IMG/VR virus record: IMGVR_UViG_3300025011_000016
From: a virus
Lineage: Duplodnaviria; Caudoviricetes
Strand: one strand, 5' to 3'
DNA: 64,000 bases
Shown here: positions 1,528 through 64,000 of the stretch, piece by piece
How positions within the stretch are numbered: position 1 is the stretch's first letter
Layout: every line of letters begins with the position of its first letter
The notes under the pieces: model-generated
What the model saw: the letters and a program-made list of their open reading frames with translations, nothing else
Database searches by the model: none
Told to the model about the DNA's origin: nothing
Program-made: the position numbers and the translations under genes

Positions 1528-4500
1528 ATGGCAGTAACACCACCAAAGAAAGTGGTCCCAAATTTATCATTGAAAGAAACATTGCAAGAGAAGGAACAAT
1601 TATATCATGGTAAAGATGATATATTCGGAATGACATTACTTACCAATCCAGGGTATATTAGTGCATCTCGAAACATTATGTTTACTTCTCATTTAAGACA
1701 ATTCGTAAATTTGAATAAACCGGATTTCCCAAAAGTATTAACGAATTATGAAAATCTTGTTGGTAAACATTCAACTGGATATTTCAAACCTAAGAATGAT
1801 TTAATCGTTGTGGATAAGATACCCAAGTTTAATGATATAAATGATGCAAATCATTTATATCTATTATTCTTATATGATAAGAAGACTAATACTTACTCCG
1901 TTATACAGAAAAAGATCGTTGAAGATCTAACAGAGAAGTTTGGTTTTAAATATAAGAATGATCTTATGGATTCTAAATCTATCGGAGATAAAATACAAGG
2001 AGGTAAAACATTATATTCATCCACATCATATGATGAAGATGATAATTATAACTATGGTAGAAATATTAAGTTTATGTATCTACTTGAAAACAATACTATT
2101 GAAGATGCCATAAAGTGCTCTGAATCGTTATCTAAAGAAATGACTTCGACTGAGGTTGAAACTGTAAAGATATCATTCAATGATAATGAAATCATGTGTA
2201 ATCTTTATGGCAACAATGATGAATACAAAGGTTTTCCAGATATTAATGAAAGGGTTAAAGATAAGATCATATGTGCCAAAAGAAGAATTCATAACAATCA
2301 ATTATTATTCGATCTAAAGAAATCAAATCTACGTAAGATTAATTTTATGTCAGATAACTTATTCTTTATTGATGGAAAGATTGTTGATATTACTATCTAT
2401 TCAAATAAACCTATTGGAGAAATTGAAGATAATATCTTTAATCATCAAATGTTAAAATACCTTAAAATGCAAAAAGAATTTTATACTAAAGTTTTAGATA
2501 GGTGTAAAAAGATAATTGCATCTGGAGCTAAATATTCAAATGAAATAAATTTCTATTATAAGAAAGCTAAGAATATATTAGACGATAATTACATGTACAA
2601 GGAAGAAGATAACAGTGTATTTAGTAATATGGTTATTGAATTCCTTGTTGAACGAGAAGTTCCTTTATCAGTAGGACAGAAGATTACTGGTCGTTACGGT
2701 AATATAATTGCTGTATTTTCTTTAATTGTCGGGGATATCCTTATAGCTTAAACTACTATTAGTAACAAGTTTAAGATTGGACAATTCGCAGCCAAGATTG
2801 TTAATAAACAATAAGGTTCAACGACTAGAGTGAAAACTCGTAGATTCGAAAGAATTGAAATGGGAAAACGATAGATTTTAATCTATTGAAGATATAGTCT
2901 AATATCCTAATGGAAGTTAGGGAAGTTCATAAGAGAACTGCATTATATAATAATGTGAATACTTGAATAAAGGTATTATAAGTCAGATCATACCAGATGA
3001 AGAAATGCCATTTCTTGAAACTGGTGAACGTGTCGATTGTATATTCAACTCCCTAAAATTTTGGGGCTTTATGTAGTGATATATAATGAAAACTACTTTA
3101 ATTGCGGGAAAATTCTTATGGCTTTATAATATAAAGATTGGACAATCCGCAGCCAAGATTGTTAGTAAACAATAAGGTTCAACGACTAGAGTGAGAACTC
3201 GTAGATATTAATATCGAAATTGGTAGAATCTTCTATATAGAAGATTATGAGATAGTCTGGTATCCTATATAACTATAGGGAAGTTCATAAGGGAACTGCA
3301 TTAATTAATAATTACTGTGAACACAACGAGGTGTGATAAATCGCTTAACTGAGAAGGTCCGGGCGATGTAAAACCTTTCTAATTGCGGGGACATTTGTTA
3401 ATTTCAATTTACCAAGTTAATATATTAATGGCTTAGTCCAATCAACTAAGGTATGGTAATAAGAATTGAAATTGAGTAATCCGCAGCCAAGATTGTTAAT
3501 AAACAATAAGGTTCAACGACTAGAGTGAAAACTCGTAGGTTTATTTATAAGCCGAAACGGAAGGCTGGTAATACTTAATATTATTAGAAGATATAGTCTA
3601 AAACATTTGTGAACTCATTTCAGTTATATGAGCAGTCAATAAATTTTATATGTAATCGCATAAGAGAAAGAATTGCGATAACAGAAGATATCTCTATAAA
3701 AGAACAAATGGTATTTAGTATTGTGGGTCATTTTAATCCTGAAGAACAAAGAAGACTTAGGATATATTATGATAAGTTATCAGATAATGGTAAGGATCAT
3801 TTCTTCGATGATATAGTCAAGCAAGGTATCTATATACACATTCCTCCACTTTGGGAAGACGTATGTTTATTCGATAAACTAAGAGCAATATATGCTGAAT
3901 TCACATGGATAAAACCATACTCAGTTTATGTGAATAAATTTGGAAGAAAGATCAAAATGATGAAGGATTTAATTGTCGGAGAAATGTATGTTCTTAAATT
4001 AAATCAAACTTCAAAGAAAGGTTTTTCAGCCAGATCCACTGGTTCGTTATCGAAGAGAGGAATTCCTATTTATTTATATGGGACTATATAGAGTAATCTA
4101 TATTGTGAAAACATTTTAATTGACGGGAAACTCCTTAGAACTTCTTAATTGAAGATTGGACAATCCGCAGCCAAGTCTCTTATAATAAGAGAAAGGTTCA
4201 ACGACTAATTTAGAGCTCAAGTGAGTGGATGAGAATCCTTTTAAATCAAAATAAATGTCATCCGTAAAAATAATAAATAACGGATGGTGATATAGTCTTG
4301 TATCCTATATAGTTATAGGGAAGTTCATAAGAGAACTGCATAGATTAACGACCTATGTGAAAGTATCGGAGAAATCAAATAAAGCAAAAACCCATCAAGA
4401 ATTATATCCACATACGCCTCAATTTGTAGGGGCTGTTGTATAGTAATATATAATGAATCTTTCTTAATTGACGGGAACCTTCTTAGAGCCTTATTTACTA

Positions 4501-5552
4501 AACTATAAGTATTATAGTGGCCAGAATAATTAACTGGGTATAGTAATAAAAATAAGGATTGGATAATCCGCAGCCAAGATTCTTATATAAGAATAAGGTT
4601 CAACGACTATCGAAAGCTTTTAATTAAGTTAGTAGAGTAAGCTCACAAGTCAATAATGGTGAGTTAAAACAGAAAGCTCCTAGAAATAGGATAAAGATAT
4701 AGTCTGCTATCTCAAGGAAACTTGAGGAGTTCATAATGGAACTGCATAAATTGACGATTTATGTGAACAAAAAAGGATACGAATTGGAGATTACTTATAT
4801 AGTTTCCCTGCATAGTAATATGCAGTTTAACAACTCTTTTAATTGACGGGAAACTCCTTAGTGCTTTATAATATAAAGATTGGACAATCCGCAGCCAAGC
4901 CTCTTTATGAGAGAAAGGTTCAACGACTAGAGCATTGCTCATAGATTTACAAGTTAATGGTAAGTCGAAATGGAGAGCTCTATTAATAAACTTTATTAAT
5001 AGATGAAGATATAGTCTGCACCTTAAAGAAATTTAAGGACAATCTTTTGAATTGTAATACATGTTACGAATGTATTTAACATATTGGCAGGAAAATATTA
5101 ACAGTATGATAGGTGTCGATCCAGACATCATAGCTAAACTACATTTATTCTATAGGTCTTCAGTTGTTGGAAGAAGAAACTTAGGTGAAACTTTGGCAAC
5201 TAGACTTAAGTTATTAAATGATTTTAAGTATTCTGCGGAATTCAAAAATAGAAATGTTGAAATTTTACAGGCATATTTAAAAGCTATGGGCGTAAAGATT
5301 GTATTTGAAAATGAGAATATGTATATTGAAATCTATACTGATCAGTTAGAAGAATATTCATCTGAGGGTAGGATATATATATGTACTAAACGTGAGTTTG
5401 AAGCCGTTCAGAGAGAAGCAGAAGTTCGCAGAGAGTTCCGTGAGGATAAGTGCTTAGTGGGAACTCATGCTGAAGTTGAAGCTATTATTCAAGCTCGTAT
5501 CAGCGATCTAAACAAACGAGATACTCATTATGTAATTGACATAAATTTATAA
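1528..5552 (+). CDS. rpoB: phage multisubunit RNA polymerase beta subunit, C-terminal half; 7 exons, about 755 aa after splicing (probably the non-virion enzyme)
   Basis: Exons 1528-2700, 2966-3054, 3329-3345, 3610-4067, 4369-4419, 4777-4791, 5088-5552 total 2268 nt, in frame. Joining restores GQKITGRYG|NKG, FNSL|GVINRL|N, SARSTG and TP|IRIGD|QE, matching beta motifs GDKxxGRHGNKG, NPLGVPSRMN, HARSTG and RFGEME. Confidence 0.9.
2701..2965 (+). ncRNA. group I intron, ORF-less (beta-C intron 1)
   Basis: 5' exon TACGGT|, IGS ATTGCTG. Core AATTGTCGGG / ATTCGCAGCCAAG / GTTCAACGACTA / AAGATATAGTCT. Ends ...AATACTTG. Confidence 0.9.
3055..3328 (+). ncRNA. group I intron, ORF-less (beta-C intron 2)
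   Basis: CTCCCT|AAAA pairs with TTTTGGGG (U-G at the splice site). Full P/Q/R/S. Ends ...ACACAACG. Confidence 0.9.
3346..3609 (+). ncRNA. group I intron, ORF-less, apparently lacking P9 (beta-C intron 3)
   Basis: ATCGCT| pairs with IGS GGCGAT. Full P/Q/R/S. Only about 10 nt (AAAACATTTG) separate S from the inferred terminal G. Confidence 0.75.
4068..4368 (+). ncRNA. group I intron, ORF-less (beta-C intron 4)
   Basis: TTCCT|AT pairs with ATGGGA. Full core. Ends ...AAGTATCG. Confidence 0.9.
4420..4776 (+). ncRNA. group I intron, ORF-less (beta-C intron 5)
   Basis: GCCT|C pairs with GGGGC. Full core with a longer P5 extension. Ends ...AAAAAAGG. Confidence 0.85.
4792..5087 (+). ncRNA. group I intron, ORF-less (beta-C intron 6)
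   Basis: GGAGAT|T pairs with AGTTTCC. Full core. The 3' site is G5087 (gives RIGDQE) or, less likely, G5090. Confidence 0.8.
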
Positions 5553-6518: not shown

Positions 6519-7092
6519 GAAAGAAAAAATGCAACGTAGTACGTTAACACATTCACTTGAGCCGGTTGAATCACAAGGCTTTGATGACGAAGATTCTATT
6601 AGAAATGAGGAGGAAACTGCAATGAACAAAATTACCGAGGGAGAACAATCTAAACCGGATGGGAATATTGAAAATTTAATCGGGAGTATCAACAAAGAAG
6701 AAATCACTAGTGATAGTCAAATAAATGAAGTTTCAGGCACTACGGATGATAATGATCAACGTGTCCGTGTTCAATTACCCGAAAACGCGCTATATGATCA
6801 CAATGCAAAACAAGTGGTTGCCTTTGATTGTAGAGTTGGCGTTATATTGAATGGTGTGGAATTCAATCCAGAACAAATTGTTCAGAGAATATGGGATAGT
6901 ATCGAACGAAAAAGACTTGAGGGAATTAACGAGCCGCCCCGTATCATTCAATGGAAAAATAAACGTGAAGTCGAAAAGCCTAAACTAATAATTATTCCGG
7001 ACGTTCCTAAACAGGTATCAAAACCTGTAGTTACTCATAAGCCGGGTGCAGCTATATCAGCAATTGGAAGACAATTCGGAATGATGATTTAG
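6511..7092 (+). CDS. hypothetical protein translationally coupled to ParA
   Basis: 8-nt overlap with the parA stop. Acidic low-complexity N-half. No ParB motif recognised. Confidence 0.75.
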   Translation: MSKKEKMQRSTLTHSLEPVESQGFDDEDSIRNEEETAMNKITEGEQSKPDGNIENLIGSINKEEITSDSQINEVSGTTDDNDQRVRVQLPENALYDHNAKQVVAFDCRVGVILNGVEFNPEQIVQRIWDSIERKRLEGINEPPRIIQWKNKREVEKPKLIIIPDVPKQVSKPVVTHKPGAAISAIGRQFGMMI

Positions 7093-11525: not shown

Positions 11526-14500
11526 TTGAAGGACTTCATAAAGGATTATAACAACACCAATGAAGAAAATATCAATTTTGATCTAATGACACGATCACAT
11601 GATGCTGATTTAACAGAGTATGTTGTTAATACCTGTAAATCATTAGAAGTTCTTAAATATATTAAATTCATTGGTTATGAATATATAACTGATGAAACGA
11701 AAATAGATATTAATTACTATATGAGTACGAGGAAGAAAAGTAAGAAGAAAAATGAAACAAAGTATATGTACCTGCAAGATAGTCGATATGGTGAAATGCA
11801 TTTAAAGTTTCATTTAAAATGTAAAGATCGATCATTAACTTTTATCAAGAAGATATTATTACCAGTGGCTGATGATAATGATTATTATTTAGTTAAAGGT
11901 AAAAGACATTCATTATTATATCAACTAGTTGATAGTTCAACTTATACAACTAGACAGAATTTAACATTAAAATCATTAAGACCTATTACGATGAAACGAA
12001 CTGAAAGAATATATTCAGATACAGATGGTACTAAACATTCAGCTCCTTCATATGCAATTTATATCTTCAAGAAAGAAGTAGATATATTATTATTCTATTT
12101 TGCAAAGATAGGTGTGTCAAGAACTTTAGAATATTTTTCAGTAAATCATATAATGAAGTTTAAATCAGAAATTGAAGATACTATCAATAATATATATTTC
12201 TCAATTAATAGTAAATTACATGTAGAGATCAATAGACATTTCTTTGATAAATATCCATATGTTAAGAGTATAGTATTTATGATATTGAATATTTGCACTA
12301 ATAGATTAACTGTTGAAGATCTAGAAAATAAATCTTTCTGGATTGAAAAGATAGGCTCTATGAATGCGACTAATGCATATAACTATCTAGAAAAAGGTAC
12401 TAATACTTTAGTATTCTTTGATAGGTTATTAGATGAAACAACTAAGAATATTTTAAAAATTCATGATGAGAATAATAAAAATATATACTCTGTAATTCGT
12501 TGGATTAAATTATAGTCCCATTATAGAGTGATCTATATTGAAAACTTCTTTAATTGTCGGGAAACTCCTTAGTGCTTTATAAAGATAAAGATTGGACAAT
12601 CCGCAGCCAAGATTCTTATAATAGGAATAAGGTTCAACGACTAATTTAGAGCTCAAGTGAGTGAGTTTAATATAACTCTTAAATCGAAATAAGAAGCATC
12701 TTATATAAGATGATGATATAGTCTGTGCTTTATTGAAAGATAAAGAAAGATAACATCTTTACATTATCTAACGAATAATGTTAACACTCAGGTTTCAAAA
12801 CTTTAATGAATTACGTAAGAAAGATAATCTTGATCTTGCCAATAAACGTTTACGATGTAATGAACTCATCGCATCATTATTAACTAAAGCTTTTAGTACT
12901 AGAGTTGATAGAATTATTGGTTTTGGTAATAAAGTTACGTTAGATAACATTAAGGAAATATTCAAATTTCCAGGTGATGTAATAATGCAGCAATTGCATA
13001 AGTCAGGATTATTTAGATATGATATTTTATTGTCCATTATAGTAGTGATATTATAATGAATTTTCTTTAATTGGCGGGGACATTCTTAGGGCTTAAACTA
13101 CTAAAATATATCAGTGATGATATACTAACTAAGAGTAACTAACTTAGTATGAGTAATAATGTTTAAGATTGGACAATCCGCAGCTAAGCATCTTTATATA
13201 AACCCCCATAATTATTAATACGTTATACAATATAAAGGAGAGGTGTGACTGTAATGAAAGGACGATTGGGTGAAAATAAATGTCCCTCTTGTTACGAATA
13301 ATTATTCAATTAATTCTGAGGGATTTATTAGGAATGATAAATTCAATAGAATTTTGACCCGATGGAAAAATAATAGAGGTTATGAAGCTGTGCAATTATC
13401 ATGTATTGATGGTATAACAAGAAGTTTTACAATTCATAGATTGATGGCTCATCATTTTATACCAGGGTTCGACATTTCAGATAGATCCATTGTTGTTCAT
13501 CATAAGGACAGTGTAAATAAAACTAACTCATTAGATCTTCTAACCGTTTGTACTCAAAAAGAAAATATTAAGTATTCTATCGAAGAAGGTAATAAACCAA
13601 ATGGTGAAAAACATCCGATGGGTAAATTTCCAGATGAGCTGGCTAATAAAATAGTTGCCTTATTACAAAAAGAAAAAAGTACCGATGAAATATTTAATAT
13701 ATTAGATTTAGAAGTTAAGAAGAATATGCGTATATTTATAAATGATCTTAGAGCTAAACGAACCCGATTGTATTTAACTGAAGGTTTGGATTTAAAGAAG
13801 CATGTGCAGGAAAAACATGATATAAACTTGGTGAAGAGGGTGATTCGTTATATGAAGATAGGTATGACGGTAGATAATATAATCAATATGATTGGAAAAG
13901 GAAATGCTGGTAGGCATGAAAGGGAGAGATACTCCTCGTTAATACAAAGGATACATGACGGGAAAGCGTGGGGAAGATTATATAAAGATGATAGTTCAAC
14001 GACTAATGATGACTACATGGTTATTAAAATTAAAATGTAGTTATAGATTTACAAGCTAATGGTAAATCGAAATGGGGAACACCTCATATTAAGTTGATAT
14101 GAGATGAAGATATAGTCTGGTATCCTAATATTAAATTAGGGAAGTTCATAAGAGAACTGGGTTTCGTTGCGGAAAACCTGAACCTGGGGATAAAATTAAC
14201 GATCTCGACTTCTTTAGTAAGTTCAAATATACCCTAAATTTTGGGGCGTTATAGAGTGATCTATATAGATAAAATTCTTTAATTGTCGGGGAACTCCTTA
14301 GAACTTCTTAATTGAAGATTGGACAATCCGCAGCCAAGATTGTTGATAAACAATAAGGTTCAACGACTAGAGTATAACTCGTAGATATATAAGTTAATGA
14401 TATATCGAAATAAGTTTAATCTTCTTATAGAAGATTGTGATATAGTCTTGTATCCTATATAACATTAGGGAAGTTCATTTGAGAACTGTATAGAGTTACG

Positions 14501-15746
14501 ATCTATATGAAAGTATACGTAAAGGACCAAATTCCTTGGGTTTTAATAAATAGGCCCATGATCTTTTAATTGCGGGAAACTCCTTAGTACTTCTATATGA
14601 AGATTGGACAATCCGCAGCCAAAATTGTTGATAAACAATAAGGTTCAACGACTAGAGTATAACTCGTAGATATATAAGTTAATGATATATCGAAATATAG
14701 AACTATCGAAAGATAAAGAGATAGTCTGGTATCCTAATTAACATTAGGGAAGTTCACAGGAGAACTGCATTATTTTACGAATAATGTGAACTCATCGAAT
14801 AAAAATGATAATAATATCTCAGTTAAATATCGCGGCATACACCCGAGTTATCTGGCCCGCGTAGATATTAACGTTTGCGGTGAACGTAGAAATATAATTG
14901 CCGCCTTTTCTTTAATTGACGGGAACTCCCTTATAGCTTAAACTACTAATAGTAACAAGTTTAAGATTGGACAATCCGCAGCCAAGATTGTTATAAAACA
15001 ATAAGGTTCAACGACTAGAGTGATAACTCGTAGATTCGAAAGAATTGAAATGGGAAAACGATAGAGTTATTCTATTGAAGATATAGTCTAATATCCTAAT
15101 ATAAGTTAGGGAAGTTCATAAGAGAACTGCATAGATTGATAAACTGTGTGAATAAATGAATTCAGACCCTAGAAATAAATTTGGGGCAATATCGAGTGAT
15201 CGTTATTGTTAAACTACCTTGACTGCGGGAAACTTCTTAGAGCTTTAAATTGATAAAGATTGAACAATCCGCACCCGATATTCTATATAATAGAATAAAG
15301 TTCAACGACTAGAGCATATTTGCTCGTAGATATAAAGTTATATCGAAATTAGTAGAATCTCTTAGGAGATTATGAGATAGTCTGGTATCCTATATAACTA
15401 TAGGGAAGTTCATAAGAGAACTGTACTATTTAACGAATAGTATGAACACACGGGAACTAGTGGTATTATAACACCATTCTGTAAAACTAGTGGATTATTC
15501 TTCGATGGTGCATTTGAACCAGAAAGTTTTAAATATGATTTTGATAAGGAGATAACTGACTTTAGAAAATCAACTAGTAATAACATAATTGTTGATACTC
15601 ACTATGATAATATATCTGAGTATTTTGAAGGTAGAGAACGATTTAAAGAAATGAATAGTCGAATCAAAATATCAGAGATTGAACGAACTGATAATAGTAA
15701 GTATTATATTAAAATTAAGCTTGCTAGTAATACTGATGATATATAA
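11526..15746 (+). CDS. rpoB: phage multisubunit RNA polymerase beta subunit, N-terminal half; 7 exons, about 556 aa after splicing
   Basis: Exons 11526-12505, 12792-13023, 14189-14235, 14520-14541, 14798-14881, 15159-15170, 15453-15746 total 1671 nt, in frame. YYLVKGKRHSLLYQL corresponds to FIINGxERVxVSQL. Joining gives KYTL|KGPNSLG and RGIHPSYLARVDINVCG|NSDP|GTSG (beta GPGG and [23 protein letters not shown]). Confidence 0.88.
12506..12791 (+). ncRNA. group I intron, ORF-less (beta-N intron 1); closest 'empty' relative of the two TnpB introns
   Basis: GGAT|TA pairs with TAGTCC. Full core. The 3' domain GTCTGTGCTTTA...CTAACGA...TAACACTCAG parallels that of the TnpB introns. Confidence 0.9.
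13024..14188 (+). mobile_element. group I intron carrying an HNH endonuclease in P6 (beta-N intron 2)
   Basis: TGAT|A pairs with TTGTC. Q at ~13176 and R at ~13994 are separated by the ORF, with arms CATCTTTATA / TATAAAGATG. Ends ...AACCTGGG. Confidence 0.85.
13270..14040 (+). CDS. intron-encoded HNH homing endonuclease
   Basis: GYEAVQL, IHRLMAHHF, VHHKD..NK.N..L, QKEN. Its last codons overlap the intron R element. Confidence 0.8.
   Translation: MKINVPLVTNNYSINSEGFIRNDKFNRILTRWKNNRGYEAVQLSCIDGITRSFTIHRLMAHHFIPGFDISDRSIVVHHKDSVNKTNSLDLLTVCTQKENIKYSIEEGNKPNGEKHPMGKFPDELANKIVALLQKEKSTDEIFNILDLEVKKNMRIFINDLRAKRTRLYLTEGLDLKKHVQEKHDINLVKRVIRYMKIGMTVDNIINMIGKGNAGRHERERYSSLIQRIHDGKAWGRLYKDDSSTTNDDYMVIKIKM
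14236..14519 (+). ncRNA. group I intron, ORF-less (beta-N intron 3)
   Basis: CCCT|AAA pairs with TTTGGGG. Full core. Ends ...AGTATACG. Confidence 0.9.
14542..14797 (+). ncRNA. group I intron, ORF-less (beta-N intron 4)
   Basis: GGGT|TT pairs with AGGCCC. Full core. Ends ...CTCATCG. Confidence 0.88.
14882..15158 (+). ncRNA. group I intron, ORF-less (beta-N intron 5)
   Basis: GCGGT|GA pairs with TTGCCGC. Full core. Ends ...AATAAATG. Confidence 0.9.
15171..15452 (+). ncRNA. group I intron, ORF-less (beta-N intron 6)
   Basis: CCCT|AG pairs with TTGGGG. Variant core ACTGCGGG / ATCCGCACCCG / GTTCAACGACTA / GAGATAGTCT. Ends ...ACACACG. Confidence 0.88.
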
Positions 15747-24850: not shown

Positions 24851-24989
24851 CCTTCCTTAGTAATATGTATTAATTATTATAATGAATGACATTGATCATG
24901 ATAAATGTTTATATATTATAATAAGGTACAGTTTGAATTATTATTTTCGTTTTAACAATTGTATAATAGAAAGGTGTTGATTTATATTT

Positions 24990-27900
24990 ATGGATTTCAT
25001 GAAAGGTATTAATAAAGAGAATGTCATGTTAATTAATATAATATATCATAATAAGAGAAAAGAGAATAATTATAATGATTACTTAGATATTATCACTAAA
25101 GATTTAACCACAGGTGAAAAAATACTTACAACTATCGAGAATCCTGAAATGGATATATATTTTACAAAAGAGGAGCATAGAAATTATGACTATAATAAGA
25201 ACTTTATGGAAATTGATAAGACTGATAGACATAGATTTAAATATAAAGATCTAACTAGATCCATAGCTAAAATGGCTGGGCCTAGTTATGAGAACTTCAT
25301 TAAACAATCTATAGAAACACAAAATTATGCTAGAATAAATAATATCCATAAATATAAATATGTATTTGGATCTGATGTTGATATTGAAAATTGGTATAGA
25401 ATTCAATGGTTATTAAATTATGATAATAATAAACCTAAATCCGTAACTAAGCTATTTCTCGACATAGAAGTCGACGGTCGGGATGTACCTGGATTCCCCA
25501 GAGATGGTGAAGTGCCAATTAATGCTGTAACGATAGTAGATGAATTTAGTAATCAATCATTTACATTCTTATTGGATAATCCATTAAACCCTCAAATAGA
25601 AGATTTTAAAAATGATGTGGAATCTTTTGTTGAAGAACTACATAATGATTTTGATGAATCATATGGGGAATTAAAATATAACTTATTTATTTATGATGAT
25701 GAAGTTCAAATGTTAATAGATGTATTTAAATTGATTAACACTCTGAACCGAGATTTCCTATTAGTGTGGAATATGAGTAAAATGATGCTCCTTATAAAGG
25801 CGACTTTATAAGAAAATTTCTTTAACTGCTGGAAACTCCTTAGAGCCTTTATTATCAGAGTATAATAATATAAAGGATTGGGCAATCAGCAATCAAGTTC
25901 AATAACAAACTAAGTTTTATTACATTTATTAGAGGAGGGTAAAACATGTATATAGTAATACGCAAAGATAAAGAAGTATTTAAATTATCAACTTATCCTG
26001 GGATTAAAAAAGATATGTATTCTATTAGTAACTACGGGTCTATACGTAATAATGTGACAAACGAGATATTTTTTCCAACATCGAGAAACTCAGCAGGTTA
26101 TGTACACACTTCTTTATGTACAGAATCATTTAAAGTTTACACTAGTGTTTTGGTATCACGTTTAGTTGCTTGGGAATTTTGTGATGGTTATGATAAGGAA
26201 CTAAATAGGGTGGAAGTCAATCATAAAGATATCAACAGGGCTAATAATTATTATGAGAATTTAGAATGGGTGACTCGGGGAGAAAATACTAAATTTGCCT
26301 ACGTGCATGGCAATCGTAAGGTGATAGTGCCAGATTCTAGGGGACCAAGAGCAAAGATACGCGGATCATTAAATCCCAAGAATGTTTTCAGTGAAGAGTT
26401 TGTACATGAACTCTGTCAGTTATTCACGGACGGTAAGAGCACTAAAGAGATATTAAAAATATTCAATACGAGTAAAAAATTAAATACACAACTCTATTCA
26501 TTACTCATGACTTTGAAACATAGAAAAGGATGGGGACATATTACGGAAAAATATGTATATTGATATTTGTTATTGAAAAGATTCAACGACTAGAGTGAGA
26601 ACTCGTAGACCCTTTTCATGGGGTGGACATAATAAGTCCTTCGCGAAATGGGAAACATCTCCGATGTGGAGATGAAGATATAGTCTGATATCTTAGGGAA
26701 ATCCTAAGGAAGTTCATAAGAGAACTGCGTAGTATAAAAAACTATGTGAACTGTTTGTTCGATGTGCCGTACATGATCGCACGTATGTTAGAATTAGGAA
26801 TGAATCCTGTTGAAGTGATGTGTCATAAAGATTTTAAAATACAAGAAGCTTTTTTCAAAAAAGATCTTCGAAATTTTATGATAGCTAATAAAGGAGATTA
26901 TTTTAAGATATCATCTTATACTGTATATTTAGACCAAATGATAGTATATGCCAGTTTAAGAAAAGGAGGTAGTCAGTTACGATCAAATGCTCTTAGCTAC
27001 ATTGCTCAAGTTGAAATTGGTGATGAAAAATTAGACTATTCTGAAGATGCTAATATCAAAACTTTACCATATGTTAATTACAAGAAATTCGTTAAATACA
27101 ATATCAAAGACGTTTTACTACAACTTGGAATTGAGAGAAAAACTCATGATATTGATAATGTTTATTTAAGATCGTATACAAATGTAACAGCTTATTCAAA
27201 AGTATTTAGACAAACGGTATTTTATAGTGCCGGTGATTCTTTAATTGACGGGAAACTCCTTATAGCTTCTTAATGAAGATTGGACAATCCGCAGCCAAGA
27301 TTCTTATAATAAGAATAAGGTTCAACGACTAGAGTATAACTCGTAGGTTTAATAACTGAAATGGGAAACCGATAGAATTTATTCTATTGAAGATATAGTC
27401 TATTATCCTAAAGTAATTTAGGGAAGTTCATAAGAGAACTACATTATCTTACAAATAATGTGAATTATAGGTTCTTAAAAAACAGAGCATTTTTAGAGTT
27501 TTATAAACAAGGTTTGATTATTGGTAATAATACCAATATTGATTATGGATTACCTCCTCAGATAGCTAAAGAAAAAGATGAGGATGATGAGAAATTTGCA
27601 GGTGCATTAGTTGGTGATCCTGAATTGAATAGTAAGACTGGTATAATGATGTTAGGAACTCCAAGTAAATACATCTATGATAACGTTGTAGATATGGATA
27701 GCTTTGTCCCATTATGTAGTAATATGTAATGAAAACTTCTTTAATTGACGGGGAACTCCTTAGAACTTCTTAATCGAAGATTGGACAATCCGCAGCCAAG
27801 ATTCTTATTATATAGAATAAGGCTCAACGACTATCCCATTGGTATTGAAATATACAACAGGAGTAGGGCTCAAATGAGTGGGTGAAATTCCCTTAAATCG

Positions 27901-28600
27901 AAATAAGAAGCATCTTATATAAGATGATGATATAGTCTGAACTCATATGAGAATATGAGAGAGTTTACTTTATATTATCTAATAAATAATATTAACAAAT
28001 TGATGGGTAAATATTGCTCATATAAAACTTCTTTAATTGACGGGAAACTCCTTAGAACTTCTTAACTGAAGATTGGACAATCCGCAGCCAAGATTCTTAC
28101 ATAAGAATAAGGTTCAACGACTAGAGTGTGACTCGTAGATATAAAGTTATATCGAAATGAAAAGCTCTCTTAATAAGAGATGAAGATATAGTCTAATATC
28201 CTATATAATTATAGGGAAGTTCATAAGAGAACTGTATAGAGTTACGATCTATATGAATACCATGGCGTTTTATCCTAATATGATTATGGCTTTTAATATA
28301 TCACCAAATTGTATAATCGGTAAATTACTCTTAGACACAACCATAGAAGACCTATATAATATCAAAGATATTGAAGCCGATATATATGATTGTGGGCGAG
28401 ACTTCGTAGATAACATGTTAATTAACAATCCTGGTAACATGGGCAGTAAATGGTTTAATCTTCCGAAAATAGAAGAACTTAATGAGTTAATACGAGAGAA
28501 GTTCTTAATGAATAAGAAGACTAAACTAATTATACCTGACTCATATAAAGATAAGTTATTTATTGAGAATCTAGTAATAAATATTAAAGGAGTGAAATGA
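24990..28600 (+). CDS. polB: split family-B DNA polymerase, N-terminal chain (3'-5' exonuclease plus motif A); 5 exons, about 606 aa
   Basis: Exons 24990-25778, 26758-27218, 27471-27699, 28003-28008, 28265-28600 total 1821 nt, in frame. ExoI LDIEV, ExoII WNMS|FDVPY, ExoIII YNIKD, motif A VVDMD|MG|AFYPN. Confidence 0.88.
25779..26757 (+). mobile_element. group I intron carrying an HNH endonuclease in P6 (pol intron 1)
   Basis: GAGT|A pairs with TGCTC. The P4 pairing is compensated (TGCTGG/TCAGCA instead of TGCGGG/TCCGCA). R at ~26582, S at ~26675. Ends ...CTGTTTG. Confidence 0.88.
25946..26563 (+). CDS. intron-encoded HNH homing endonuclease (NUMOD4-HNH-like)
   Basis: YSISNYGSI, GYVHTSL, SRLVAWEF, VNHKDINRANNYYENLEWVT..EN. 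Confidence 0.88.
   Translation: MYIVIRKDKEVFKLSTYPGIKKDMYSISNYGSIRNNVTNEIFFPTSRNSAGYVHTSLCTESFKVYTSVLVSRLVAWEFCDGYDKELNRVEVNHKDINRANNYYENLEWVTRGENTKFAYVHGNRKVIVPDSRGPRAKIRGSLNPKNVFSEEFVHELCQLFTDGKSTKEILKIFNTSKKLNTQLYSLLMTLKHRKGWGHITEKYVY
27219..27470 (+). ncRNA. group I intron, ORF-less (pol intron 2)
   Basis: CGGT|ATT pairs with AGTGCCG. Full core. Ends ...ATTATAG. The join gives RQTV|FLKNR. Confidence 0.9.
27700..28002 (+). ncRNA. group I intron, ORF-less (pol intron 3)
   Basis: GGAT|AG pairs with TTGTCC. Full core. Ends ...CAAATTG. Confidence 0.85.
28009..28264 (+). ncRNA. group I intron, ORF-less (pol intron 4)
   Basis: TGGGT|AA pairs with TTGCTCA. Full core. Ends ...TACCATG. Confidence 0.85.
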
Positions 28601-28601
28601 A

Positions 28602-29258
28602 ATGATTAATTCACCTATAATGGAATTAACCTCGAAGGACATTAAGAAGTTAAATGAATTCAATCAAATTGTAAAAAGAGTTTTTAATGGTATTTATATA
28701 TTTAGTGATGGGATAATTATGACTGATCCAGAAATAGGTAATAGAGTTAATAAAGGTGTTCATTTTGCAACAACTTCAATACAACCTATTGATAATATAC
28801 CGAGTAATTATTATATGTCTCTTAAATGTGATAAGATATTTAAATTCATTCGTGATAATAAAAAGAATATACGATATTTAACAATAGATGGAGGTGATTT
28901 ATATATTGATCTTAAAGATGAGAGTAAAGAAATTATTGGACGTATTTTTGATGCTGATGATAATCTTTATTTGAAGAAACGCGCCATATCAAACACTATA
29001 GAGTATCATAAAACACATTCATCATTAGTGTCTCAGAATGTTATTGAATCATTATCTGATAACGAAATATATACTTATGGTGATGATGAATATAGAGTCC
29101 GAATAACTAAGGAATTATTACCGGCTCTAAAGAGGGATATGAAAGTTAATATTTCATTCAGAGATGAAGTCGGTGATCCAACACTTTTTTATATTATATT
29201 ATCTGTGGATAAAGGTGATGTTATAACATATCATATGTATAAGTGTATAAAGTACTAA
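28602..29258 (+). CDS. hypothetical protein directly downstream of the DNA polymerase chain
   Basis: AGGAG RBS, starts 1 nt after the polymerase stop. Confidence 0.8.
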   Translation: MINSPIMELTSKDIKKLNEFNQIVKRVFNGIYIFSDGIIMTDPEIGNRVNKGVHFATTSIQPIDNIPSNYYMSLKCDKIFKFIRDNKKNIRYLTIDGGDLYIDLKDESKEIIGRIFDADDNLYLKKRAISNTIEYHKTHSSLVSQNVIESLSDNEIYTYGDDEYRVRITKELLPALKRDMKVNISFRDEVGDPTLFYIILSVDKGDVITYHMYKCIKY

Positions 29259-29331
29259 TATAAAATAATGGTATGAATTTAATTCATACCATTATTTTTT
29301 TTGCTAAATTTCACTAATTAAATTATTCAGG

Positions 29332-55854: not shown

Positions 55855-58676
55855 TTATGGTCTGGATTTAAAGAAAGAATCTATATAAGAAGCTTCTCTC
55901 TTTTTAAATGTTAATGGATTAATAAGTTGTCGTCCTAATGCCTGGAAGGATAAACCTATTAAGACAGAAGGATGTTTTTCTAATGCGGATTCAACAGTCA
56001 TTATTTGATACTCAGCTTTTTCACCATACTTACTGAAATCCGGTCTATATAAGATATCCTTACTGTGTCTTAATAGAGGGTGTATCAACAATTCACCATG
56101 AACCGCATCTGAATCAATTTTAGATTCGATTAATAGATCTAACATCTTTTGACATAACTCATCAACAGATCTACATCCAACATGATCACTTCTATTAAGT
56201 AAATACATGATGTTATAAAGAGGACGTGTCAATTCGTTATTCTCAATTTCTAATACGAATATCTTAGAATCATCATCAATTTTAGCAAAGTCAATTTCAT
56301 AAGCGTCTTTATGAGATTTACTCTTATTCATTAACTCAACTATATCTGGAGATATATATAAGTCTTTCTGATTCAATTCCATACATTCTATAATCTCACC
56401 AGATTTTTTATGTTTAACATGGAATATAGTTACAAATGTATTGAAATCAGTATCATCATATTCATTAATACTAATAATATTTTTATTAATAATAACTAAA
56501 GAATAATCATTTAAGTTAATGTCGTCATTAGTTATATTAAGAAGAATTTCATTTGCATTAATAGTGAAAAACTTATAGAAATCAGCATTGAATTCTATCT
56601 TTTCCGAAACTGTTGTTAGTAGGTGTTTAGTTGATAATACTCTCTGAGATACAGGTTCTGTTATTCTTGATCCAGCATATCCACCAATAGAGATACCTTT
56701 ATTGGTATGATATAGTTGCCCATAACAATGCCAACATATTCCATCTTTAGCTGAACAAGTTGCTGGAGATTTAACATAGATAGTTTTACCAACAATATTT
56801 TCCTCATGACCTTCAATGACGTTATAATCTCTAGTATTCTCAAGACGATAATATCTTCCCTGTAATCGTCTTAAATGCTCTTTAGTTTTGATTTCGTATT
56901 GAATTGAATGAATGCTATTACATGTTTTAACAGTAGGACTTAATTTTATTCCTGATGTTAAAAGCATTACTAATCGTGCAAACGTATTTTCATATAGATC
57001 GTAAATCCATACAGTTCTCTAATGAACTTCCCTATAACTATATAGGATACAAGACTATATCACCATCCAATGATGGATGATTCTTATTTCAGTTTAACTA
57101 TAAACTTACGAGCTTTTACTCTAGTCGTTGAACCTTTCTCTTAGTAAGAGTATTGGCTGCGGATCGTCCAATCTTCAATTAAGAAGTTCTAAGGAGTTCC
57201 CCGTCAATTAAAGAAATTTTCTCATTATATATTACTATATAATGCCACCTGTAATTGATGGCCAGATCTACCCATACGTAAGTTGACATTATTCGTTACA
57301 TAATGTAGTCCACAAAGAACTCCCTATATTTCTATAGGATACCAGACTATCTCTTCTCATTTAATTAAATGAGTCTCTCCATTTCGATTTAAGAGTTTTC
57401 ACACCCACTCACTTTGAGCTCTAAATTAGTCGTTGAACCTTTCTCTTATTATAAAGAGACTTGGCTGCGGATTATCCAATCTTAAACATTATTACATTAG
57501 TAGTTTAAGCAGTAAGGAACTTCCCGTCAATTAAAAGAGAAATGGCTAAAAATTAACCAGTTTATTCATAATTAATGATTTTCTTCCACCACGATACTTT
57601 CACATAGGTCGTTAATCCATGCAGTTCTCTTATGAACTTCCCTAATATTTATTAGGATACAAGACTATATCACAATCTTCTATATAGAAGATTCCATTAA
57701 TTTCGATATAACTTTATATCTACGAGTCACGCTCTAGTCGTTGAACCTTATTCTTATATAAGAATCTTGGCTGCGGATTGTCCAATCTTCAATTAGAAGT
57801 TCTAAGGAGTTTCCCGTCAATTAAAATAGTTTTACAACATAAGTCCACCTATGCCGCCCCAAGTTGTTTTAGGGAGTCAATATAGTAATTAGTGATGTTG
57901 GATAATCCCCCTACTATGAAGTTACTATTGATCGGATGGGGGATTGTATTTCCAGAAAGATCCGGCTTCAGCCCCCCACTAATTGCGAACTCTGCTAACT
58001 GTTTATGTTTAATCCCAGCACCAGATTTTAGTATTGGCTGTAGCATATTTCCAACAGGATCATTTTCTAAAATGGCAACTTGCTCATGCATTAGATCATC
58101 TAGTAATGATTCTATTTCCGTAGGTTGAAGTCCGTCTGGAATAACCGTTCGTATGATTTCGTTAAATCTAGGTATACGTTCGCTTACGTCAATAAACGTC
58201 TCAATATTAATTGATAACCCCAATATCATATTAAAGTCAGTTGATATTCTAGATAGATTGTGGATCATATCTGCAATTACTTTATTCATTTTAGTATTAC
58301 TGATAATCTTTCTAAATGGTAAAACTATCTTTCTATCAACATATGATTTGATATAATCTGCCGATATCTTACTACAATCAACTATATAAGATTCATTCAA
58401 TCTATCAATATAACCCAACTTCATCATCGGTGACCAAAACATATAATTTGTTAAGAAATGTCTTAATTGGAGAGTATGAATTTGTTCTCCTTCTTTATCT
58501 GAAAATTTAAAATACACTGGGCATGTTCTCAACTCCTTAACTTCAAACCCTCGTTTTAAATAATCATAGAACAACTCTAGATTAGCTTTGTAGTCCTTCT
58601 TAGTAGCCATTAAGTTTGAGATAATAAAGATCTTATTGGATAGCTCACTGATTATTTTTCCTACATCCGAATCCAA
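55855..58676 (-). CDS. rpoC: phage multisubunit RNA polymerase beta' subunit, C-terminal half; 4 exons, about 662 aa
   Basis: Exons 58676-57871, 57591-57556, 57276-57258, 56982-55855 total 1989 nt, in frame. SGAG..Q...SGGLKPD, bridge-helix region YYIDSL|GGRKSLIMNKLV|MGRSGH|FARL, zinc site C..DGICWHCYG, trigger loop ITEPVSQRVLSTKH. Confidence 0.9.
56983..57257 (-). ncRNA. group I intron, ORF-less (beta' intron 3)
   Basis: GCCAT| pairs with GTGGC. Full core. Ends ...AAATACG. Confidence 0.9.
57277..57555 (-). ncRNA. group I intron, ORF-less (beta' intron 2)
   Basis: TGGT|TA pairs with TAGCCA. Full core. Ends ...ACTTACG. Confidence 0.9.
57592..57870 (-). ncRNA. group I intron, ORF-less (beta' intron 1)
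   Basis: CCCT|AA pairs with TTGGGG. Full core. Ends ...AAGTATCG. Confidence 0.9.
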
Positions 58677-63491: not shown

Positions 63492-64000
63492 GTAAACAAG
63501 GTAAATTTCTAACTGATTGGAAAAATCATTATGTATCTATATTCTCTACCATGTACCCTGATTTAAACGAGAAGGAACTTAGTAAATTCATTAAAAGCAT
63601 TGCTTCGGAAAGAGCAGTTAGTCCAAAAGGAAAAATTCATAATAACTATAACCATAAGGAGATAGACGTTGATTTACTTACTTTAATTGATTGGTATGAC
63701 AGAACTAAACCTATAGCTGCTGGATTTGGAGTATTCTTTAAGAATCAGGATCAAGAACTCAATCCCTCAGCAGTAATGTTGGATAATTTCCTAACTTTAA
63801 GAAAATCATATAAGGACAAACTTAAAGAATTTGACAGGAAATCATATGAGTATGCCACATTTGATAGGCTTCAGGGAACTGAGAAAATCAACGCAAATTC
63901 CTTCTATGGCTGTTCCGGGAACCGAAAATCAAACTTCTTCAACCTCTATACGGCCAGTAGTACAACATCTACTGGCCAATCTATAATATCTACAACAGAG
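63488..64000 (+). CDS. polB: split family-B DNA polymerase, C-terminal (catalytic) chain, 5' part (runs off the window; not in the ORF track)
   Basis: ATG 63488 overlaps the upstream stop and is open to the window end. Contains motif B as KINANSFYG (KxxxNSxYG), preceded by L..RK.YK. Confidence 0.82.
   Translation, partial: MSKQGKFLTDWKNHYVSIFSTMYPDLNEKELSKFIKSIASERAVSPKGKIHNNYNHKEIDVDLLTLIDWYDRTKPIAAGFGVFFKNQDQELNPSAVMLDNFLTLRKSYKDKLKEFDRKSYEYATFDRLQGTEKINANSFYGCSGNRKSNFFNLYTASSTTSTGQSIISTTE

Follow-up and report, generated by a model that had tools for sequence, protein, structure and literature searches.

Can a DNA polymerase gene be interrupted twice inside its active-site motif and still specify an enzyme of normal geometry? 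This question is raised by a 64,000-nucleotide (nt) stretch of DNA from a virus of the Caudoviricetes (Duplodnaviria; IMG/VR record IMGVR_UViG_3300025011_000016), which we refer to, at its full length, as the window. Its family-B DNA polymerase (PolB) is predicted to be encoded by two genes, as in Bacillus phage AR9, and the N-terminal gene (24990-28600, + strand) would carry four group I introns, numbered here 0 to 3. Introns 2 and 3 lie within motif A, with the hexamer ATGGGT between them. We consider it likely that these two introns, 6 nt apart, are spliced separately and leave ATGGGT in the messenger RNA as a micro-exon. The arrangement appears to be an extreme case of a known kind, not a new mechanism.

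The micro-exon and its flanking introns

An initial annotation of the locus described two complete introns back to back, with ATGGGT (28003-28008) alone between them, and the sequence reads exactly so. Exon 3 (27471-27699) ends with GATATGGAT (27699), reading ...GTA GAT ATG GAT. Intron 2 (27700-28002, 303 nt) ends with ...AACAAATTG, and intron 3 (28009-28264, 256 nt) ends with ...GAATACCATG; both lack an open reading frame (ORF), and intron 3 also lacks P2. After intron 3 the sequence continues with GCGTTTTATCCT, where the frame resumes as GCG TTT TAT CCT AAT. Inclusion of the micro-exon yields NVVDMD-MG-AFYPN, and skipping yields NVVDMDAFYPN, also in frame.

Both introns were identified with the Rfam covariance model RF00028, which represents the conserved P3-P9 core and has a gathering score of 50 bits. 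Its matches at 27669-27959 (85.6 bits, E 2e-20) and 27999-28216 (69.5 bits, E 1e-15) both pass this threshold. Two further hallmarks of group I introns were examined: a U just before the 5' splice site, paired as U.G with the internal guide sequence (IGS) within P1, and a terminal guanosine (omega-G). Introns 2 and 3 both have the U.G pair, and their last bases, G28002 and G28264, line up with the terminal G of the window's paralogous introns. The 3' end of intron 2, ...ATTATCTAATAAATAATATTAACAAATTG/ (a slash marks a splice junction), aligns base for base with the ...ATTATCTAACGAATAATGTTAACACTCAG/ of a sister intron at 12506-12791, and the two share their P1/P2 layout and 3' tail (...TAACAAATTG/ vs ...TAACACTCAG/). 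The tail of intron 3, TGAATACCATG/, parallels that of intron 1, TGAATTATAG/, whose junction RQTV/FLKN was checked against AR9, as well as that of an RNA polymerase intron at 2665, TGAATACTTG/, whose junction GRYG/NKG fits the protein.

Evidence for inclusion of the hexamer comes from homologues. The initial annotation held that Met-Gly gives the correct family-B motif A spacing, and more than 20 uninterrupted homologues bear this out, reading D-x-D-x4-YP. Residues equivalent to MG, a point on which that proposal could have failed, are present in every homologue examined, as FS, LS, CS, LT or IT. The nearest uninterrupted relatives (L009, L027 and L028; 73% identical in exon 2) read DNVVDMD-FS-SMYPH (DNVVDMDFSSMYP) from contiguous DNA. 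The flank DNVVDMD of the window is identical in L009 and L028, and the window aligns gap-free to its homologues only with the micro-exon, as DNVVDMD-MG-AFYPN. The same spacing is found in AR9 gp132 (IDFD-LS-SLYPS), in g170 of Yersinia phage phiR1-37 (IDED-LS-SMYPS), in 13 further large metagenomic contigs (L011-L024, L029, L030; DYD/DFD-FS-SMYP), in L025 (DFD-CS-SMYP), in L026 (DLD-LT-AEYP) and in the more distant L001-L005, whose PolB is unsplit (DLD-IT-SMYP). The L009 motif aligns gap-free with motif A of archaeal PolB crystal structures (...IVYLDFRSLYPSIIITHNVSP), which identifies the second Asp as the catalytic one and places intron 2 directly after its codon. A separate irregularity was seen in L025, a 206-kb relative, where a frame change or stop occurs shortly before motif A (6610-6660) and two overlapping tblastn segments lie in different frames; a sequencing error, a frameshift or a small insertion could be the cause.

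We then asked which splice sites are compatible with this protein. Enumeration of all U/...G/ splice combinations around both introns gave 16 that keep the frame and the homologue length, and the sole combination of those 16 with P1 support is 27699/28002-28008/28264. Junction 27705/28264 also keeps frame and length. It would make 27706-28264 a single composite intron or twintron with its 5' splice site after AGCTTT, giving the junction ...GATAGCTTT/GCG... and a motif, DMD-SF-AFYP, of correct length. We regard this as extremely unlikely. There is no P1 for U27705, the best U.G-closed helix being 3 base pairs (bp); the GGAU/…GUCC P1 and the P2 of intron 2 are the same as those of the sister intron at 12506; both terminal Gs are homologous to those of paralogues; and an 8-bp canonical P1 at 28003-28021 would be left without explanation. 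A twintron in which one intron lies inside the other was likewise rejected, as each has its own P1, core and terminal G, and the protein alignment needs the 6 nt between them. An exact IMG/VR search for the junction GATGGGTAAATATTGCTCAT returned no match, and no second, spliced-like copy of the junction was found within the window.

The 8-bp helix ties the micro-exon to intron 3. AUGGGU (28003-28008) pairs with the IGS GCUCAU at 28016-28021, with U28008.G28016 at the splice site, and AA 28009-28010 with UU 28014-28015 extend the helix to 8 bp. The pairing of the downstream IGS with the micro-exon, noticed earlier, is upheld, but it involves all six exon bases plus two intron pairs and not five of the six. 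Infernal independently aligns this hairpin to the P1 of the model, with the consensus splice-site U.G pair at U28008/G28016. Of all U positions in the window, 4% can form a U.G-closed helix of at least 6 bp within 30 nt, and the helix taken alone is only moderately significant; it gains weight because Infernal places it as P1 and because it occupies the same location as the P1 of paralogous introns. Ten introns of the window share this order of U/, a 6-16-nt loop and the IGS, and in each the guide sequence covaries with its own, different exon sequence. For intron 2, P1 is formed by GGAU (27696-27699) with GUCC (27706-27709), and P2 by CAUUAU (27710-27715) with GUAAUG (27726-27731); this P1 and the P2 hairpin that follows it are identical to those of the sister intron at 12506. 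Rfam drew the P1 of intron 2 inside exon 3 instead (ACAUCUAUGAU with GUUGUAGAUAU), a placement that we rejected, as a splice site so placed has no frame- and length-preserving junction.

Several observations weigh against separate splicing with retention of ATGGGT. The P1 of intron 2 is just 4 bp long, and 22% of U positions in the window reach 4 bp by chance. P3 of intron 2 (CUUCUU with AAGAAG) is fully paired, but that of intron 3, taken in the same register (CUUCUU 28029-28034 with GAAAAG 28146-28151), contains a C x A mismatch at its centre, which may make intron 3 a weaker ribozyme. In intron 2, the IGS/P2 junction (GUCCCAU 27706-27712) can also pair, through CCCAU, with AUGGG of the micro-exon (28003-28007) at -5.9 kcal/mol, and the pairing of the intron 2 IGS with its own 5' exon end is weaker (-3.4 kcal/mol). 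This could be a misfolding or kinetic trap, or possibly a coupling element between the introns. Finally, MG and the AF that follows it are unlike all retrieved homologues, which have FS, LS, CS, LT or IT and then S or A and M, L or E. All four residues between the Asp and YP (MGAF) differ from those of relatives (FSSM and similar), while the flanks are identical.

An intron core of ~100 nt is repeated many times in this genome, and such repeats could have faked the tandem: the true gene would then have one intron, and the piece with the intron tail, ATGGGT and the intron head would come from elsewhere. The core (28024-28126) does exist in many copies, Logan contigs break there, and many spurious joints were seen. 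When four DNA runs were mapped to the region, the many joints were all explained by cross-mapping among repeated intron copies; the intron-less alleles 27699>28003, 28008>28265 and 27699>28265 were not among the joints listed, which has no bearing on whether such alleles exist. Two contigs argue against such an artefact. Logan contig X1 record 6 matches 27910-28054 exactly at a depth of 284, against about 317 for the single-copy flanking exons, and Logan contig X5 record 17, from a run of a different study, matches 27844-28013 exactly. Each contig runs from the intron 2 tail through ATGGGT into the intron 3 head, and since these separately assembled contigs of two studies' runs bridge the junction exactly, an assembly error behind the tandem arrangement is unlikely. 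Moreover, the protein of a one-intron gene would lack two residues that every homologue has, and the assembly adds exactly 6 in-frame bases, the first residue being hydrophobic. An assembly artefact with a one-intron gene is very improbable in our assessment. The assignment of 28003-28008 as the Met-Gly codons of motif A (D-MGAF-YP) draws on the homologue alignment, the P1 pairing and these bridging contigs.

Splicing order and exon skipping

The splicing model that we favour is built from these features. Two ORF-less introns of different subfamilies would have inserted 6 nt apart, intron 2 immediately behind the codon of the catalytic Asp and intron 3 two codons beyond that point, and each would use its own P1, catalytic core and terminal G. 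Their removal would most likely be sequential, probably in the 5'-to-3' direction during transcription, to give ...NVVDMD-MG-AFYPN..., in which the D-x4-YP active site has its normal geometry. That the introns splice themselves, in which order they do so and that inclusion dominates are all predictions from sequence.

The micro-exon would serve twice. It is both the first six bases of the 3' exon of intron 2 and the entire exon strand of the intron 3 P1, and during removal of intron 3 the whole micro-exon would be the 5' strand of that helix. This dual role had been proposed in the initial annotation, and the pairing supports its P1 part. Because the micro-exon abuts the terminal G of intron 2, both ribozymes probably cannot act on it simultaneously. 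The further suggestion that sharing this substrate may force an order of splicing is not supported: the intron 3 P1 folds in the precursor (-5.9 kcal/mol) and after intron 2 removal (-7.6 kcal/mol), and no convincing P10 of intron 2 competes for the micro-exon. P10 was looked for by eye, for intron 2 (AGCUUU with AUGGGU) and for intron 3 with its downstream exon, and no convincing helix was found. The intron 3 P1 is only 1.7 kcal/mol stronger once intron 2 has left, as the exon 3 end adds two pairs. This suggests a mildly favoured 5'-to-3' order, which fits co-transcriptional folding; either order is compatible with the pairings.

A different product would result if the micro-exon were skipped as the main outcome, with GAT joined to GCG and …NVVDMDAFYPN… acting either as the functional enzyme or as an isoform with a regulatory or poison role. 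The route could be a hybrid ribozyme that joins the first half of intron 2 to the last half of intron 3, or the use of a distal 5' splice site by intron 3. Identity between the 5' halves of the introns reaches 90%, so that intron 2 can supply the 5' strands of P3 and P7 in place of intron 3, and the product stays in frame and retains an Asp four residues before YP. There are also documented cases in which a short exon between group I introns is skipped. As summarised in PMC10136302 from Landthaler & Shub 1999, skipping affects a 23-nt exon between introns I2 and I3 of Staphylococcus phage Twort orf142; it also affects a 34-nt exon between tandem group I introns of Coxiella 23S rRNA, and in engineered Tetrahymena intron pairs both mechanisms, a hybrid ribozyme and a distal 5' splice site, were shown (PMC10136302). 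In the terminase gene of phage SIOphi the skipped form is the dominant product (PMC11878797). Here, by contrast, none of the more than 20 homologues, from several divergent groups, is without the two residues, and the identical DNVVDMD upstream in the nearest relative fixes the register. In addition, intron 3 has a strong cognate P1 on the micro-exon, while its IGS pairs weakly with the end of exon 3 (-0.6 to -1.3 kcal/mol). We judge skipping as the main outcome to be improbable.

Some by-product without the micro-exon is likely to arise, since the 5' halves are 90% identical and a hybrid ribozyme with the intron 2 head and the intron 3 tail could form. The initial annotation expected that skipping would shorten the active site by two residues and leave a full-length but probably dead polymerase chain. 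The change in length is as expected (in frame, two residues fewer), but as the upstream sequence is D-M-D, V-V-D-MDAF-YP keeps an Asp four residues before YP. What speaks for a dead chain is solely that no homologue has this deletion, and not the loss of a catalytic residue. The tandem introns might even be an alternative-splicing device, in which sequential splicing gives the normal polymerase and the hybrid ribozyme gives an isoform without MG (ΔMG), a proposal that we hold to be distinctly improbable. If it were true, the isoform would keep D-x4-YP with an altered nucleotide-binding pocket, and could be a splicing-controlled switch or a dominant-negative regulator of replication. The cultured relatives PBS1 and AR9 use uracil-containing DNA.

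A side observation concerns the two 5' splice sites. The last six bases of exon 3 (27694-27699, ATGGAT) are one base apart from the micro-exon (ATGGGT), making the splice-site contexts near-repeats, which is relevant to the use of a distal 5' splice site by intron 3.

Insertion history and comparison with known systems

How did two introns come to lie so close together? The nearest relatives have no intron at the motif A site. In a more distant one, L010 (exon 2 identity 56%), motif A is interrupted by just one group I intron (L010:773-1038, 113.9 bits), inserted at GAC T/GT, 1 nt downstream of the intron 2 site of the window and with a similar P1-P2 layout; its junction restores DCSSMYP, which is found uninterrupted in L025. 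Three insertion points therefore fall within 7 nt, which points to an insertion hotspot.

Introns 2 and 3 are of different subfamilies. Intron 2 resembles the intron at 12506 in having P2 and a long P7.1/7.2-like insert, and intron 3 lacks P2 and has a 3' half that resembles intron 1. Their P3-P7 5' halves (27732-27835 vs 28024-28126) are 90% identical, and 96% identical over 76 nt; their 3' halves are 56% identical. We read this pattern as independent insertions that were probably followed by local gene conversion. Overwriting of the 5' half of intron 3 from intron 2 would explain the C x A mismatch in the intron 3 P3. The divergence of MGAF could likewise reflect co-conversion or adaptation of the exon to the ribozymes. 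In a distinctly less probable reading, M-G-A-F, unique among the homologues, may have been imposed by the P1 and homing requirements of the ribozymes rather than by enzyme function.

Other sites in the gene have also been invaded in a relative. L008 (L008:1-1240), an 86%-identical relative from another metagenome, is interrupted at the positions of introns 0 and 1 by introns of other types. The first of these has no ORF and comes after AATATGGGT/, a hexamer identical to the micro-exon; the second has P2.

Tandem group I introns, short exons and exon skipping are already established in principle. As in Twort orf142, two highly similar ORF-less phage group I introns stand in tandem in one essential gene around a very short exon, and for Twort a hybrid ribozyme was proposed as the exon-skipping route (PMC10136302). 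Twort differs in having a 23-nt exon in a tail tube gene, whereas the present exon is 6 nt long, lies in PolB motif A, is wholly inside the downstream P1 and abuts the upstream terminal G. Only the 5' halves are near-identical here, and splicing was demonstrated in Twort whereas it is predicted here. Mini-exons of fewer than four codons "occur regularly" in mitochondrial genes (MFannot paper, PMC10352661), and a 1-nt 'mini-exon' is known in Ophiostoma rnl (PMC12308204). The exon studied here resembles such organellar group I and group II mini-exons in having fewer than four codons, in being flanked on either side by introns of self-splicing classes, and in being detected through otherwise missing conserved residues. 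The organellar examples lie in mitochondrial cox1 and rnl and their splicing is often protein-aided, whereas the present exon lies in the catalytic motif of a phage replication gene.

We found no published 6-nt exon between group I introns in a virus in our search of the open-access literature, and as far as that search shows, this would be the shortest viral exon between two group I introns. Its position at the catalytic aspartate implies that a replicative polymerase would depend on two precise ribozyme reactions on one 6-nt segment. The locus would thus offer a compact natural test case for neighbouring ribozymes that share a substrate, for the frequency of exon skipping and for intron invasion that reshapes active-site codons.

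Gene model and genomic setting

The phage behind the window is probably an uncultured, AR9/PBS1/phiR1-37-like jumbo phage of groundwater. Sequencing-run look-ups traced the window to groundwater metagenomes, and parts of it were recovered exactly from one soil run and one sediment run of other studies. Megablast of 24900-29300 against 50,697 phage records gave no match. By tblastn, exon 2 matched 794 phage records, the majority of the matches listed being annotated as DNA polymerase, and came closest to the DNA polymerase of Bacillus phages AR9/PBS1 (38%) and of Yersinia phage phiR1-37 (36%). A Pfam profile search of the PolB exons, taken one by one and not as the spliced product, gave no match.

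The family-B polymerase of AR9 is in two pieces, gp132 (exonuclease and partial catalytic domain) and gp152 (PMC5312081), and that of phiR1-37 is likewise split into g170 and g167. The window's gene agrees with AR9/PBS1 gp132 and phiR1-37 g170 as an orthologue (36-38% identical in exon 2) of a split PolB in the same neighbourhood, and the gene order is syntenic with AR9: SbcC ATPase, PolB N-part, DnaQ-like exonuclease and portal. It differs in its introns: the AR9 and phiR1-37 genes are uninterrupted, and the window's gene is broken by four, of which a pair falls within motif A.

All parts of the gene model are on the + strand. Exon 1 (24990-25778) encodes the exonuclease part of the N-terminal subunit; tblastn matches to AR9 g132 and phiR1-37 g170 cover 25023-25772, and its 3' boundary is approximate, the junction WNMS/FDVPY with exon 2 having been inferred from relative L008 (WNMG/.../FDIPY). 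Intron 0 (25779-26757) is a group I intron with an HNH endonuclease ORF at 25946-26563 (Pfam HNH_3, E 1e-7). It has a partial Rfam match at 26496-26709 (26.1 bits) and its 3' tail, TGAACTGTTTG/, obeys the family rule; a P1 was looked for in this intron and none was found, hence its 5' end is approximate. Exon 2 (26758-27218) is 38% identical to residues 263-414 of AR9 g132 by tblastn. Intron 1 (27219-27470; Rfam 71.6 bits) is ORF-less, lacks P2 and has the P1 CGGU with GCCG; its junction ACG GT/G TTC gives RQTVFLKNRA, of the same length as KKTICLRNLA of AR9. Exon 3, which ends on the motif A catalytic Asp codon (…NVVDMD), is supported by tblastn matches to AR9 and phiR1-37. Exon 5 (28265-28600; AFYPNMIMAFNISPNCIIGKL…stop) ends the PolB N-part. 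It matches AR9 g132 residues 484-548 by tblastn, and AR9 g132 terminates at the place equivalent to its end. Part of a separate gene for the C-terminal, catalytic subunit is found at 63809-63985 (+ strand), with motif B KINANSFYG near 63884 from a six-frame regular-expression match; this motif B gene lies ~35 kb from the N-part, at the window's edge.

The ORF finder broke the gene at the introns. An ORF beginning MNTMAFYPN... starts in the intron 3 tail (28253-28600), and the exon 3 ORF runs into intron 2 as far as a stop at 27729; automatic annotation would label these fragments hypothetical proteins. A split protein begun at ATG 28253 or 28262 in the intron 3 tail was rejected, given the lack of a ribosome-binding site and a break inside motif A. 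Gene callers will miss this PolB N-part gene entirely, and in intron-rich jumbo phages they will annotate fragments.

The window as a whole contains 18 Rfam group I matches above threshold. Those in RNA polymerase subunit genes form clusters at 2665-5038 (seven), 14225-15111 (three) and 57030-57880 on the minus strand (three). Short exons occur in these clusters as well, for example one of 17 nt at 3329-3345 (P1 AUCGCU with GGCGAU), one of 22 nt that precedes 14541 and one of ~12 nt that follows 15111; no other exon in the window is as short as the 6-nt one of PolB.

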